Below are positions 11,900 through 32,319 of a stretch of DNA of 64,000 nucleotides, in pieces. Position 1 is the stretch's first letter; each line of letters starts with the position of its first letter. The DNA comes from an uncultured Prevotellaceae bacterium. Its GTDB lineage: Bacteria > Bacteroidota > Bacteroidia > Bacteroidales > Bacteroidaceae. The notes beneath the pieces were generated by a model, which was not told the DNA's origin, searched no databases, and worked only from the letters and a program-made list of their open reading frames with translations. A program made the position numbers and the translations under genes. The DNA lies in the NCBI GenBank assembly GCA_900320045.1, contig ONQT01000006.1, positions 19,633 through 83,632 of the forward strand. Reading direction: 5' to 3'.

Positions 11900-14368
11900 A
11901 TGAAACGCATACTCATCGTCCTCACCATCCTCTTTTCCGTTAGCTGCGGCTCGTTTGCAGCACGTTATCGGTTGTGGTATGACCGTCCTGCTATGACGTG
12001 GACACAGGCATTACCCATCGGCAATGGCATCATGGGTGGCATGGTGTTTGGCACACCTGCCGTAGAGCGCATCCAACTGAATGAGGAAACGCTCTGGGCC
12101 GGACAACCTAACAATGTCATCAACCCCTCGGCGAAAGCCAATCTGCCCAAGGTACGCCAGCTCATCTTCGAAGGCAAGTACAAGGAAGCACAGAAGTTGG
12201 CCGATGACAAGGTGATGCCTCATTCTGCAGGCAAGAATATGGGTATGCCTTATCAGCCTTTCGGCGACGTCTACATTTCCATGCCCGGCCACGCCGACTA
12301 TAGTGACTACGAGCGCTGGCTGGACCTAGACAGCGCCAAGGTGGTGAGCCGCTATGTCTCCAATGGCGTCGAGTACCGCCGCGAGGTAACGGCGCCCATG
12401 GGACCGATTCCCGTCGTCACCGTTCACCTAACAGCAAACCGACAAGGAATGCTGACCTTCACCGCCCACATGACATCACCCCACGAGAACGTACTTATCG
12501 GTACCGACACCAACGCCACCTTATATAATAATGTGTCCGACGGTTCCCCCGTCGGAGACGCCTATCTCCACGGTGTTTCTTCCAAGCACGAGGGTCTGAA
12601 GGGCAAGGTTCGCTTTATGGGGCGCATGGCCGTTGAGACCAACGGCGGGACAGTAACCTGCTCGAATGGTGTCATCAGCGTGACTGGGGCCGACGAGGCG
12701 GTGGTGTTCGTTGCCATCGGCACGAACGTCAAGAATTACAAGGACATCACCGGCGACGAGGTTGCACAGGCCAAGGAACGCTTGGAAGCAGCCCGCAACT
12801 GGGGATACGGTCGTCTGCAGACCGTCCATACCAATGTCTATACGGAATACTACAACCGCGTCAAGTTGGACTTGGGCGAAGACCACTACCCTCGCCTGTC
12901 GATGGACAAGCGCATCAAGCAGTTCAGCGCCACCACTCCCAAGAGCGCTCCTACTCCCGACGGTTCTCCGTCAAGCCTCCCCGACAACCACCTCGTAGCC
13001 ACCTACTTCCAGTTCGGACGCTATCTCCTCATCTCGTCGTCACAGCCCGACAACATGAACCCCGCCAACCTGCAGGGCATCTGGAACGACAAGATGTTTC
13101 CCTCGTGGGACTCGAAATACACGACGAACATCAATCTGGAGATGAACTACTGGCCGGCAGAGGTGACGAACCTCTCGGAACTGAACGAGCCGCTGTTCAA
13201 ACTCATCCGTGAAGTAAGCGAACAAGGCAGGCAGACGGCCCGCGACATGTATGGTGCCGACGGATGGGTGCTGCATCACAACACGGACCAATGGCGCATC
13301 ACCGGTCCTGTAGACCATGCCCAGACGGGATTGTGGCCGATGGGCGGTGCATGGCTATGTCGCCACTTGTGGGAACATTATCTTTATACGCGCGATGAAG
13401 CCTTCCTTCGTCAATACTACCCTATCATGCTGGGCGCTGCCACCTTCTTTACGCAGACCCTGCAGAAACACCCGACCAAAGGCTGGCTGGTAGTCTGTCC
13501 GGGAGAGTCGCCAGAGCATGGCGGCAAGGGTCGCGGCACAGCGCTGGATGCCGGTGTAACGATGGACAACCAACTGGTGCGTGAACTCTATACCAACGTC
13601 CTCGAGGCTGCTAAGATTCTGGGCGACGACAATGCTCAATTGTCAATCATCAAAGCTCAATTGAAAGAGCTTGCTCCCATGCAGATAGGCAGCTGGGGAC
13701 AGTTGCAGGAATGGCTCGACGACCTCGACGACCCGAAGGACGACCACCGTCACTTCTCGCACCTCTATGGGCTGTTCCCCTCTAACCAGATATCCCCCTC
13801 TAAGACACCCGACCTTTGGGAGGCTGCCCGCAAGTCGCTAACGGCCCGTGGTGACGTCTCGACAGGCTGGAGCATGGGCTGGAAAGTATGCTCATGGGCC
13901 CGACTGTTAGACGGCGAGCATGCCTACAAGCTCATCAGGGACCAGTTGACGCTGACGGCCGACACCTTCCTGATATTCGGTGCCACGAAGCAACGTGGCG
14001 GCACGTATCCCAATATGTTCGACGCCCATCCGCCCTTCCAGATTGACGGCAACTTCGGCTGTACGGCAGGTATCGCCGAGATGCTGATGCAAAGCTACGA
14101 CGGCTTCATCTACCTGTTGCCTGCCCTTCCTGCTGTATGGAAGGACGGCAGCGTCAAGGGACTGGTGGCCCGCGGCGACTTCGAGATAGACATGAACTGG
14201 AAGGACGGCAAGCTGACACAGGCCGTGGTGCGCTCGAACAAGGGCGGCAATTGTCTGCTGCGCAGCAACACGCCACTTAAGGGCAAAGGACTGAAAAAGA
14301 CAAAAGAAACAAACCTGTACACGCTGTCTACCAAGGCGGGCGTGGCATATACGATTCAAGGACTATGA
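11900..14368 (+). CDS. GH95 alpha-L-fucosidase/alpha-L-galactosidase
   Basis: [48 protein letters not shown]. Confidence 0.93.
12530..12556 (+). repeat. In-frame hairpin element, family A
   Basis: AATGTG TCCGACGG TTCCC CCGTCGGA, read as NVSDGSPVG. Confidence 0.75.
12929..12975 (+). repeat. In-frame hairpin element, family B
   Basis: ...ACT CCCGACGG TTCT CCGTCAAG, read as [16 protein letters not shown]. Confidence 0.75.
13636..13663 (+). repeat. In-frame heptamer microrepeat (TCAATTG-like x4) in GH95
   Basis: TCAATTG TCAATCA TCAAAGC TCAATTG. Confidence 0.7.
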
Positions 14369-29430: not shown

Positions 29431-32319
29431 ATGAAGAGACCACTATTTACTGCATTACTATTATCCGTATCAGCGCTTTGCTGGGCGCACCACGACTGGG
29501 AGGACAACCACGTGCTGCAGATTAACCGCGAACCGGCAAGGGCATACTTCATACCCTTTGGCGAACAGAAGGGCGACCGCATGCTGAGCCTCAATGGCGA
29601 GTGGCAATTCCGCTGGACAAAGACACCCGAGGAGCGTATCGTCGATTTCTATCGTACTGACTTTGACGCAACAGGATGGACGACATTCCCCGTACCTGCC
29701 AACTGGGAGGTCAACACCAGCGGCCAGCGCTACGGAACGCCCATCTATATTTCTGCCGGCTATCCGTTCAAAATTGATCCGCCATATGTCATGCGCGAGC
29801 CGAAACCGCAATGGACGACCTACGTGGAGCGCAATCCCACGGGGCAGTACAGAAGGACGTTCACCCTGCCCGACAGCTGGTTTGCCACCGCTCCCGATGG
29901 TTTTCCGTCAGGTCACGGCCAGACGTTCCTGCGGTTTGAGGGTGTGATGTCAGCCTTCTACGTGTGGGTAAACGGACAACGCGTGGGCTACAGCCAGGGT
30001 TCTATGGAACCATCGGAGTTCAACGTTACCCCCTATATTAAAAAAGGTGTAAACCAAATTGCCGTCGAGGTGTACAAATACAGCGACGGCTCGTATTTGG
30101 AGGATCAGGACTTCTGGCGCTTTGGCGGCATCCACCGCGACGTGCTGCTATACCACACCCCCGACATCCGTCTGCGCGACGTAGCTGTAAGGACACAGCC
30201 CACCACTACCCTTTCCCAAAAGGCAGAACAAAAGGAAAGCCCTACCAATACCTGGACCCTTGCCATCAACCCGCAGTTCTCGGTGTATAACGGCCAGACG
30301 GGCGAAGGCTACCGATTGGTAGCCACACTTAGGGACGGCATCTGCATGGTGGGCAGCGATTCCGTCACAGCAGAAGAGGTGCTCGACCTCGCCCACAAGG
30401 CCAAGCGCATGAACGAGTGGTACTCTCAGCGCGGCTACCAAAAGTTCAACCGCATGGAAATCAAAGTCAACCACCCGCAGCTGTGGAGCGTAGAGAGCCC
30501 CAAGCTATATACGCTACTATTAGAGTTGAAGGACCATAACGGGAAAACCGTTGAGCGCGTCAGTCAGCAGGTGGGTTTCCGCGATATTCACATTGCCGGC
30601 GGACAGTTGCTTATCAACGGCCAGCCCATCAAGATTCGCGGCGTCAACCGTCACGAGCACGACCCCTATAGAGCCCGCGTCATGACCGAGGAACTGATGA
30701 AGCGTGACCTCGAACTAATGAAGGCAGCGCATGTCAATGCAGTCCGACTGTCGCACTACCCCAACTGTCCACGGTGGTACGAACTGTGCGACTCGATGGG
30801 CATGTACGTCATGGACGAGGCCGACTGCGAGACGCACGGACTGCGCGGTACGTTGGCCTCAACACCCGACTGGAACGATGCCTTCATGGACCGTGTGGTG
30901 CATATGGCAGAACGCGACAAGAACCATCCATCGATTATTTTCTGGAGTCTGGGCAACGAGAGCGGCTACGGTGCCAACCATGCCGCTATGTCAGCCTGGC
31001 TGCATGAGTTCGACCCCACACGTCCCGTCCATTACGAAGGAGCACAGGGTACCGCCTCCGTCGGTAGCGACATGCAACGCACCAGCCATGACCCACAGAC
31101 CGTCGACGTCATCTCACGTTTCTATCCCCGCGTGATGCAGGATTACCTCAACCCTGGCATTGCCGAGGGTGCTGACCAAGAGCGTGCAGAGAATGCCCGC
31201 TGGGAGCGACTCGTGGAAATCGCCAACAGACCAGGCGACCATTGCACATGGGAAGGCAGTGACGGTGGTCCGCGCCCCGTACTGACCAGCGAGTATGCAC
31301 ACTGCATGGGCAACGCCCTGGGCAACTTTAAGGAGTATTGGGACGAAATCAATGCCAACCCGCGCCTATTGGGCGGTTTCATCTGGGACTGGGTAGACCA
31401 GGGCATCATTGTAAGTGAAAAGGGAAAAGAGAAAAGTGAAAAATCTGCTTCCGCACCTCAAGTCCTTTACGGGGGGGACTTCGGCGACAAGCCTAACCTA
31501 CATGCCTTCTGCATGAACGGTGTCGTACTGAGCGACCGCACCCTAACACCTAAGTATTATGAGGTACAAGCCATCTATGGCAACATGAGCGAGCAGCAGA
31601 TTGCCGACCTCTATCCCGAGACCAAGGCCACCAAGCCGAAGACCTCAAAGAAGAAAGCGCTCACATCAAACCTCTTACATCTTACCTCTTCCATCAGACC
31701 TCAGTGTTTCCGTGCTCCGACGGATAACGACAAAAGCTTCGGCAACTGGCTGGCCAAGGACTGGAAGCGCTGCGGACTGGACAGCTATACAATCCCGATG
31801 ACGATGGAGGAGGATGGTAATGAACTGACGTTTACCTTCGAGATTCCCGACACGCTGCCCGACTTGCCGCGACTGGGCATCGTCATCGAACTGCCGAGAG
31901 AATATGAACAACTGACGTGGTACGGTCGTGGCCCCTGGGACAACTACCCCGACCGCAAGGTGTCGTGTCCCGTGGGACTGTGGAAGTCGACCGTCTCGGA
32001 GCAGTACGTCCACTACCCCCGTCCTCAAGACTCTGGCAACCATGAGGACTGCACGATGGTAGAGCTGAAGACCAAGAAAGGCAAGAAACTTCGCATCGAA
32101 GCCGTTGATGAAGCTTTCTCCTTCTCTGCCCTGCCCTACTCTGCACAATACATCGCCAGCAAGACACACGACTACGAATTACAAGAGGAAGGGCGAACTT
32201 TCCTCAGCATTGACTGCGCTGTAATGGGTCTAGGCAACAGTTCCTGCGGTCCGGGAGTATTGAAGAAGTACACCATCGACAAGAACAAGAAGCATCAACT
32301 CAAGATACGCATCCTGTAA
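29431..32319 (+). CDS. GH2 beta-galactosidase (LacZ-type, BT0993-like)
   Basis: [63 protein letters not shown]. Confidence 0.92.
29884..29913 (+). repeat. In-frame hairpin element, family B
   Basis: GCCACCGCT CCCGATGG TTTT CCGTCAGG T, read as [10 protein letters not shown]. Confidence 0.7.
31414..31459 (+). repeat. Heptamer array plus conserved tail (family D), in-frame in GH2
   Basis: AGTGAAA AGGGAAA AGAGAAA AGTGAAA + AATCTGCTTCCGCACCTC. Confidence 0.75.
31661..31702 (+). repeat. In-frame heptamer microrepeat x6 in GH2
   Basis: TCACATC AAACCTC TTACATC TTACCTC TTCCATC AGACCTC. Confidence 0.75.

Follow-up and report, generated by a model that had tools for sequence, protein, structure and literature searches.

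The DNA analysed here (the window) is a stretch of 64,000 nucleotides from an uncultured Prevotellaceae bacterium, positions C41:19633-83632 of the genome designated G000, with a G+C content of 54.8%. The assembly amounts to 2.31 Mb in 75 contigs and is 79% complete. The window contains a cluster of hydrolase genes for degradation of the pectin rhamnogalacturonan II (RG-II), and five of these genes carry, within their reading frames, copies of a short hairpin-forming repeat. It is this repeat family that is described here. Its copies have been added to genes in a subclade of rumen Prevotella and in the phages of these bacteria. The genes and copies are listed below; a position at which hairpins recur in orthologues is called a slot, and bit scores are those of the covariance model of the family (R1) that was used for genome-wide copy counts.

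11900-14368, + strand: GH95 gene, from the open reading frame (ORF) and Pfam
12944-12979, + strand: degenerate copy in the GH95 gene, 3' arm decayed (CCGTCAAG); 37.2 bits
16810-20724, + strand: gene with GH78 and BNR domains, from the ORF and Pfam
20194-20229, + strand: copy in the GH78 and BNR gene, peptide TTTTPNASPSG; 44 bits
22366-25155, + strand: GH138-like gene; Pfam gives a GH20b-like N-terminal match only, and GH138 is the label of an earlier note on this DNA
23329-23364, 23362-23397 and 23395-23430, + strand: triple tandem copy with a 33-nt period in the GH138-like gene, peptides PTTTPAVSPSG, PTTTPTASPAG and PTTTPAASPAG
25206-29405, + strand: GH137-like, GH2 and malectin gene (below, the GH137-GH2 gene), from Pfam; the N-terminus matches the solved GH137 domain 5mt2
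26097-26132, + strand: slot A copy (PPATTPDASPSGA) in a beta-turn of the GH137-like propeller, from the pattern search and orthologue alignment
27330-27365, + strand: slot C copy with a perfect stem, 5' of the GH2 TIM barrel; -16.4 kcal/mol
28022-28097, + strand: decayed relative at slot D (…ACCGGCGGTTCTGCCGTCGAC…, LTGGSAVD); intact copies are found here in G096, L212 and L241
28266-28301, + strand: slot E copy in the linker before the malectin domain, AATTPDASPSG, from the pattern search and orthologue alignment
28947-28982, + strand: slot G variant copy after the malectin domain, ATTPKVSPEG, stem CCCAAGG/CCCGAGGG; 39.8 bits
29431-32319, + strand: GH2 gene, from the ORF and Pfam
29881-29916, + strand: variant copy in the sugar-binding domain of the GH2 gene, TTTT loop; 39.5 bits

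The earlier note had counted ten copies in five hydrolase genes, and all are present where it placed them. They consist of GCC-ACY-ACT followed by CCCGACGG-TTCT-CCGTCGGG, lie between 12944 and 29916, are all on the + strand and in one frame, and are each translated as (A/T)-T-T-P-x-x-S-P-x-G. A search of the window for CCCGACGSTTCTCCGTCGGG with up to 2 mismatches found seven sites, all on the + strand, against none in 100 shuffles; looser searches and direct reading added the rest. Three of the copies (12944, 28947 and 29881) are degenerate. As the same note observed, those at 26097 and 28266 differ at only one of 30 bases, and the copy at 23395 has a compensatory stem, CCCGCCG/CGGCGGG. The slot C copy belongs to a 66-nt insertion (27291-27356), which also has a second leader, ACCACCGTTCCC.

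The unit is made up of a leader, a stem and a loop. In an alignment of 24 genomic copies (A2), some rows of which were picked with a pairing filter, it is 30-36 nt long and 89.6% of the stem cells are paired. The conserved 9-nt leader, GCCAC(C/T)(A/G)(C/T)T, is followed by a GC-rich stem of 8 bp, CC(C)-NNN-G(G/C) plus its complement, closing a 4-nt TTCT loop. The three middle pairs of the stem co-vary (GAC/GTC, GAT/ATC, GCT/AGC, AAC/GTT, GTC/GAC, GAA/TTT): 26 cells are altered on both sides, compared with 6.7 in shuffles (0 of 500), and sliding the 3' arm in A2 abolishes the pairing signal. When the leader-plus-loop pattern was applied with no pairing requirement, 20 of the 22 matches had complementary arms on our own reading of the listed sequences. 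Predicted hairpin stabilities range from -12.5 to -17 kcal/mol. The 8-bp stem is the sole inverted repeat of the unit, and no longer parent element, such as a miniature inverted-repeat transposable element (MITE) has, was found. The terminal tetranucleotides GTAG and CGTC are absent from both ends in A2, with CGTC occurring only within the 3' arm. Rfam 15, run over the whole window, gave no match at the gathering threshold.

The encoded peptide varies (D/N/A/E/V and S/L/A/T) while the arms remain complementary. Compensatory change is also seen at orthologous sites, where PDGSPSG in L054 corresponds to PAGSPAG in L075, L091, L118 and L120. In nearly all copies the second Thr is encoded by ACT and the first Ser by TCT, which are 9% and 11% codons in G000. 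Since these rare codons are kept, the identity of the family lies at the nucleotide level and not in the peptide, and the earlier view of it as a true repeat family is borne out.

Another set of in-frame hairpins in the window, named family A in the earlier note, has the leader A(A/C)TGTG and lies at 12530-12550, 25242-25266 and 28590-28661. The signal peptide of the GH137-GH2 protein is encoded in part by one of these hairpins, and the malectin domain contains an inverted pair. Family A as literally written there (CCGACGG-TTC-CCGTCGG) has no good matches genome-wide. The related hairpins in the window have 5-nt loops (TCCGACGG-TTCCC-CCGTCGGA at 12530, and GTCAGCGG-TTTTG-CCGCTGAC at 25242 and 28630) and are missed by the covariance model.

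Comparison with relatives supports the view that the window copies are lineage-specific insertions. The sister species G015 has a syntenic cluster at 70-82% amino-acid identity, from which all ten copies are missing. Across the five cluster genes there are 22 insertions of at least 4 residues in G000 and three in G015. Relative to empty orthologues, insertions of the repeat are 24-39 nt long and include the leader. The copies at 12944 and 29881 are absent in G015, the former also in G096, and the triple copy at 23329-23430 is a 34-residue insertion absent from G015; at 20194 the Ser/Thr/Ala stretch of G015 is shorter, and the segment is missing in G096. The four copies of the GH137-GH2 gene are also absent in G017 and G013, the latter having an unrelated 9-residue insert, LPSDTGHDH, in the slot A turn. 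The slot A copy (residues 297-310) is also missing from the solved GH137 domain of B. thetaiotaomicron (PDB 5mt2), where its flanks join adjacent contiguous strands.

The G015 alignment also shows other hairpins at two of these sites, GTCGGTGG-GAAAA-CCACCGAC at 28266 and GTCAGCG-ATTCTGC-CGCTGAC at 12944, so that 'empty' sites are not always truly empty. At the nucleotide level G015 is too diverged for its alignment to resolve unit boundaries or target-site duplications. Among the 22 insertions, 5 contain perfect stems of at least 6 bp (null mean 1.4, null maximum 5). The idea that all lineage-specific insertions are hairpins was therefore rejected; hairpin families account for part of the 22.

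The earlier note considered the family confined to the glycan cluster. Inside the window this is correct, all copies falling within 12.9-29.9 kb, but it does not hold for the genome: R1 finds 23 copies in G000, of which 13 are on eight other contigs (C22, C25, C35, C37, C40, C54, C55 and C67). Copies are nevertheless strongly concentrated in the cluster, where ten of the 23 lie within 17 kb of the 2.31 Mb (Poisson P = 4.5e-15). Hosts outside the cluster were identified by reading their N-terminal sequences, with no family search. On this reading AlaRS and LigA hold two copies each, and the other hosts include LeuRS, PrmA, a YgiQ-like radical-SAM protein, an aminotransferase, a transporter and a TtcA-like protein; AlaRS, LeuRS and LigA are housekeeping genes. 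On our own reading, the most frequent 12-mers of G000 are the Bacteroidota -7 promoter motif, of the TACCTTTGCA type, and several tandem repeats of heptamers or hexamers (AGTGAAA, AGAGGTG, AATTGAT, ATTTACA).

Beyond G000, an exact 28-mer pattern was scanned across 185,579 species genomes. It gave 63 matches in 60 stretches, in non-homologous genes of about 40 metagenome-assembled genomes (MAGs), and all 63 come from Prevotella, Prevotellaceae or Bacteroidales MAGs of rumen or ruminant-gut origin. In a genus survey of 101 sampled genomes the family was present in 11 (30 copies in G045, 23 in G000, 20 in G096, 10 in G077, 9 in G015, and 1-2 in six others). By AlaRS the carrier G045 is 67% identical to G000, and many genomes at 82-83% have no family member, which makes the distribution patchy. 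Ten IMG/VR viral contigs also have the exact pattern, with in-frame copies in the genes for a portal protein, a head protease/major-head protein and a repressor and in other ORFs. Phages could be carriers of the family between lineages. Literature searches for in-frame hairpins in Prevotella returned nothing relevant.

Most copies are translated in the same way. Read from the sequence, the unit has no stop codon in any of its six frames, and for 54 of the 63 exact matches the ATTP frame is that of a long ORF (binomial P = 4.5e-33, with p = 1/6); between 54 and 58 of the 63 are coding in the other species. In G000, 21-22 of the 23 copies are inside long ORFs and 19 are in the usual sense frame. 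The description of the copies as always sense and in the same frame is accurate for the ten in the window but fails elsewhere. A sense copy at C55:34303 is in frame +2 (HYSQRSSAGY) in an 853-residue ORF that we take to be GH94-like, and the copy at C22:56009 is antisense in a 361-residue ORF. Antisense copies in a RAYT-like gene (described below), L208 and L250 read PxG(E/K)PxG(T/V)V, those of L208 and L250 being PDG(E/K)PSGTV. One G000 copy, C54:24336, is clearly intergenic, lying antisense in a 40-nt spacer; C35:15387 is uncertain. A subfamily in G045, whose stem CCTTGCGG/CCGCAAGG would encode Cys, has about 9 of 15 examined copies in short intercistronic spacers. Because such non-coding copies exist, the peptide cannot be the reason for the existence of the family.

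The rare antisense and other-frame copies make the frame bias look like a selective filter rather than a property of the mechanism, and our conclusion is that selection on the peptide sets the frame; the sense preference also holds outside coding sequence. Copies persist almost only where the frame yields a turn rich in Pro, Gly, Ser and Thr (A-T-T/V-P-D-G-S-P-S-G), in permissive loops and interdomain linkers. Microhomology of the leader was considered as a cause of the frame. Of the sense-strand occurrences of GCCACC, 74% are in frame, and its complement is even commoner, so that it cannot give the strand bias. GC skew, tried as a guide to replication versus transcription direction, was uninformative, since it follows gene orientation (the sense strand being C-rich); on C37, C35 and C41 of G000 it shows the gene-orientation pattern with no replication switch.

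The sites of the copies recur in orthologues. A set of 80 orthologues of the GH137-GH2 gene from rumen metagenomes (L181-L260, 57-99% identical) gave 46 R1 matches, 43 of them sense. These define seven slots, at approximately G000 residues 295-308, 422-427, 694-708, 939-941, 1019-1032, 1127 and 1245-1252, of which five are at or near Pfam domain boundaries. The adjacent GH138-like and GH2 genes have one further slot each. Six of the eight sites in the window (26097, 27330, 28266, 28947, the GH138-like site and that of the GH2 gene) hold a copy of the family in one or more orthologues no more than 77% identical (range 60-77%). Slot A is filled in G096, L212 and L233, slot C in L200, L212 and L241, slot G in L199 and L200, the GH2 slot (29881) in L212, and the GH138-like slot (SGR|..|LPPIV) in L205, L210 and L250. 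At slot E more than 15 orthologues have the family, L208 and L250 have its antisense form, and about 20 more have unrelated hairpins. The slot is readable in about 48 orthologues, most of which have a perfect stem of 5-9 bp from many unrelated families, including family A. It lies between R-x-R-Y and PTAADRN, and its stems include GTCGCCAT, GTCGCTGT, GTTGCTGT, GTCGAGG, GTCAGCGG and CCCGACGG, in either orientation. The cluster of G096 is orthologous and has slots 26097 and 28266 in common with G000, together with further copies where G000 is empty and intact tandem copies at slot D, which is decayed in G000. In AlaRS, G000, G096 and G082 have a copy in a slot at residue 412. On a quick single-gene AlaRS phylogeny these three do not form a clade, and the starred branches force at least two changes. 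A comparison of element and flank conservation among the exact-pattern loci was circular, both members having been chosen by the pattern, and was not used.

Copies in different slots of the same genome are 84.6% identical, compared with 79.2% for the same slot in different genomes and 77.7% for different slots in different genomes; between genomes, same-slot copies are thus barely more alike than copies from different slots. With genome labels shuffled within slots, the observed value was reached in none of 3000 permutations. L199 has one odd variant, CCCGGTGC-GTCA-GCGCCGGG, in three slots. The sites are old and the sequences genome-specific, which is concerted evolution or repeated overwriting. 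Since likeness within a genome exceeds likeness within a slot, the 29/30 identity of the two window copies reflects homogenisation or turnover and not youth. Two proposals of the earlier note are not supported by these comparisons. A younger subfamily that spread locally fits neither the filled sites in orthologues 60-77% identical nor the identities just given. Arrival of the cluster from a donor rich in the element does not fit a cluster that is syntenic in G015 without any of the ten copies, and of which G096 shares some slots only.

The copies expand and contract in tandem, and they are replaced or homogenised within a genome. Tandem arrays in G096 have periods of 24, 33 and 36 nt, with 1-4 copies per slot. 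In its GH137-GH2 and GH78 orthologues (G096:C33, L049/L050), partial units of leader, 5' arm and loop stand in tandem, up to four together. These partial arrays read ATTPDGSP three to four times, or contain TNTSATTPDGSP three times, with the 3' arm kept in the last unit only. Change at the strain level was read from contigs of other rumen samples, from DNA and RNA libraries, compared with the window. The triple at 23329-23430 has undergone a 66-nt (two-unit) contraction in an RNA-library contig, and the joint in a contig of run X13 would fit a 33-nt tandem duplication at 20195-20225. At 28022-28097, the 76 nt (YGLPVAAATMNQDLNLTGGSAVD) are replaced by 37 unrelated nt, with the frame kept, in contigs of two DNA runs whose other differences from the window amount to 1-3 letters. 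In a contig of a related strain, the 55 nt at 12928-12982 are replaced by 22 nt with another hairpin. Many contigs end within copies, as expected of a repeat. RNA-library contigs cross copies with no gaps, one of them covering 28532-30129; the element is not removed from transcripts, with the caveat that RNA libraries can contain DNA.

A candidate enzyme for mobilisation was looked for. In G000, 79% complete as assembled, a search for PF01797 gave no match at E <= 0.001. The genome does encode a 361-residue HUH protein resembling the transposases associated with repetitive extragenic palindromes (REPs), the RAYTs. This RAYT-like protein (C37:59313-60395; L129:2314-3399) has the HUH motif PDHIHMIV and the motif Y-x-x-x-N-P, and matches NF047646 (E = 3e-8) and, weakly, PF01797. 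Its gene has three copies of the repeat within its own two variable loops, one of them antisense, and none in its flanks. The G096 orthologue (G096:C33:3415-4698, L131) has at least five copies and lies directly downstream of the GH137-GH2 gene; the flanks of the two genes are non-syntenic. This arrangement is suggestive of cis activity. There are several paralogues per genome. A PDB sequence search with the protein gave no match, and for its extra C-terminal domain a sequence look-up gave a weak DprA-like lead (score 0.81). The classic RAYTs of G045 were rejected as candidates, being flanked by a different REP, GATAGGGT, or by none. One locus there, G045:C33 (L063:1030-2425), is a textbook REP-RAYT locus with a Y1 transposase gene (PF01797, E = 4e-26). 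The REPs around it form G(A/G)TAGGGT-NNNN-ACCCTA(T/C)C arrays with 69-nt spacing and are unrelated to the family studied here.

On the basis of these observations, we hypothesise that the family is a very small selfish DNA repeat, similar to REPs and to the Rickettsia palindromic elements (RPEs), that is housed in permissive protein loops; we would give this a probability of about 0.6. New copies would arise by copying at the DNA level that recognises the leader and hairpin, for example through a single-strand enzyme of the HUH/RAYT type, or alternatively through gene conversion among the copies. Purifying selection on the peptide, together with a preference for the transcribed sense, would then give the pattern of about 90% in the same strand and frame. 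The perfect stems may persist through recognition by the enzyme or through template-switch correction of quasi-palindromes. The cluster would be rich in copies because large multidomain enzymes offer many long-lived permissive slots, and not as the result of a recent local burst.

Several results weigh against this hypothesis. No target-site duplication is visible and no clean pair of empty and filled sites at high identity was obtained, the available empty sites being only 70-80% identical. No transposase has been tied to the hairpin family. The RAYT-like family is found in 33 of the 101 genomes, including element-free ones with uninterrupted orthologues, and it adjoins the cluster in G096 only and in none of 140 other loci searched. 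Genes for DUF559 nucleases (one in G000, four in G045, two in G096) were tried as another candidate and rejected, having no R1 copies or short hairpins nearby. At one of these loci, L146 (G045:C34:39521-41009), the DUF559 domain ends a 977-residue open frame directly upstream of a RAYT-like paralogue. The bias in strand and frame (54 of 63 exact matches, and 43 of 46 orthologue matches sense) is very strong for a filter that acts on the peptide alone, and 11 of 13 intergenic copies in G045 are co-oriented with the flanking genes (P = 0.011). Hairpins also stay in the same slots across orthologues 60-77% identical. At slot E most of the roughly 48 readable orthologues have a hairpin of some family. 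The structure itself could be under selection.

It is conceivable, and we keep it as a tentative alternative, that the enzymes of rumen Prevotella and their phages have hairpin slots, fixed at domain boundaries and in the spacers between cistrons, each of which retains a transcription-oriented hairpin whose sequence is repeatedly overwritten by the active variant of the genome. This, if true, would be a cassette-like, hairpin-targeted copy system, perhaps with a role in translational pausing or transcript stabilisation. The main rival, rather unlikely in our view, is a functional RNA or single-strand DNA hairpin under selection (a pause, stability or processing signal at the domain boundaries of long mRNAs and between cistrons), with the peptide a tolerated by-product. 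The strong co-orientation with transcription of both coding and non-coding copies would be explained in this way, as would the stability of the hairpins, the compensatory changes at orthologous sites, and the hairpin retained at slot E despite complete turnover of sequence in most of the readable orthologues. The position of five of the seven GH137-GH2 slots at or near domain boundaries would fit too, but linkers are simply places that tolerate insertions. The sister species and B. thetaiotaomicron manage with no copies, the same slots can hold antisense copies and anything from one to four units, and nothing in the window reaches an Rfam gathering score. The hosts extend from phage portal genes to what we read as tRNA synthetases, and concerted evolution across slots fits copying better than selection site by site.

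An improbable explanation is that nothing has moved: Thr/Pro/Ser/Gly linkers would evolve in place by slippage, template-switch correction would perfect their inverted repeats, and codon bias would make the same sequence recur. Tandem arrays and copy-number polymorphism would be expected, and perfect stems varying in a complementary manner are what template switching would make. Many slots contain hairpins of unrelated sequence, and CCCGACGG, which spells Pro-Asp-Gly with preferred codons, is common in frame on its own account (73 of its 82 occurrences in sense). Evolution in place does not explain why a leader with rare codons and a TTCT loop are conserved in dozens of unrelated genes of about 40 species and in phages, nor the intergenic copies; and insertions of 24-39 nt that carry the leader go beyond a 12-nt loop plus arm. 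It is very improbable that the peptide is the selected object, as a flexible linker, a protease-resistant turn or a modification site, with an incidental palindrome. Such selection would account for about 90% of copies being in a single turn-forming frame and for their location in loops and linkers. It would not account for synonymous positions fixed against the codon bias, for a peptide that changes freely while the arms stay complementary, or for the non-coding, antisense and other-frame copies. The peptide also lacks the O-glycosylation motif of Bacteroidota, D-(S/T)-(A/I/L/V/M/T).

Protein-coding palindromes have long been presented as a peculiarity of Rickettsia. The family described here is a much smaller element in abundant, free-living rumen bacteria and their phages, and its hosts include essential genes and enzymes of applied interest, those of the RG-II cluster. 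Annotation and enzyme engineering should reckon with 8-40 extra, dispensable residues at fixed loops. Metagenome assemblies are broken by the repeats, and near-identical copies within one gene do not imply recent duplication. The combination of conserved slots with sequence turnover, orientation with transcription and sharing with phages makes this a tractable case for the study of hairpin copying with no obvious transposase. It also allows one to ask whether hairpin insertions feed the evolution of protein loops.

Among the closest known systems are REPIN and REP-RAYT. When one trans-acting protein recognises all the hairpins, concerted evolution within the genome is expected. The Prevotella family resembles these in having hairpin repeats that evolve in concert and a RAYT-like HUH gene in the genome. 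It differs in that no RAYT flanked by the repeat was found, in having copies inside the RAYT-like coding sequence, and in lacking inverted doublets.

In dimensions the family is similar to the GTAG and CGTC super-families of REPs, some of which are intragenic. These are dispersed stem-loops of 20-40 nt with an 8-9-bp stem and a 4-5-nt loop; some lie inside ORFs, encode short peptides and are thought to be transcribed, and the CGTC type has no dedicated transposase (Di Nocera et al., 2013, PMC3733652). Bacteroidetes are listed among the phyla with CGTC repeats (PMC3733652). The 8-bp stem and 4-nt loop described here fall within the size of a short REP stem-loop, and the copies are likewise dispersed and in part within ORFs. 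Unlike those repeats, the Prevotella family has no terminal tag, has a conserved leader (GCCACYRYT), is mostly coding and is present in 1-30 copies per genome. A predominantly extragenic location, typical of REPs, is not seen in G000; only the G045 subfamily is mainly intergenic.

In behaviour the family resembles RPEs as well as the intragenic REPs. RPEs are palindromic repeats of about 100-150 bp that are found in frame in many unrelated functional genes, including housekeeping genes, and have no known transposase (Ogata et al., 2000 and 2002, as summarised in PMC10969869). As with RPEs, the Prevotella copies are in-frame insertions into unrelated genes that are missing from orthologues, they are translated as an extra peptide, and a transposase was not found. 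As regards placement, one copy maps to the strand turn of 5mt2 and other slots to Pfam domain boundaries, as judged by mapping onto sequences and a solved structure. The two differ in size, the Prevotella unit being 30-36 nt with one 8-bp stem, and have no sequence similarity. They differ also in their hosts, here free-living rumen Bacteroidota and phages, and in the tandem arrays, the slots shared across species and the homogenisation within genomes that mark the Prevotella family.

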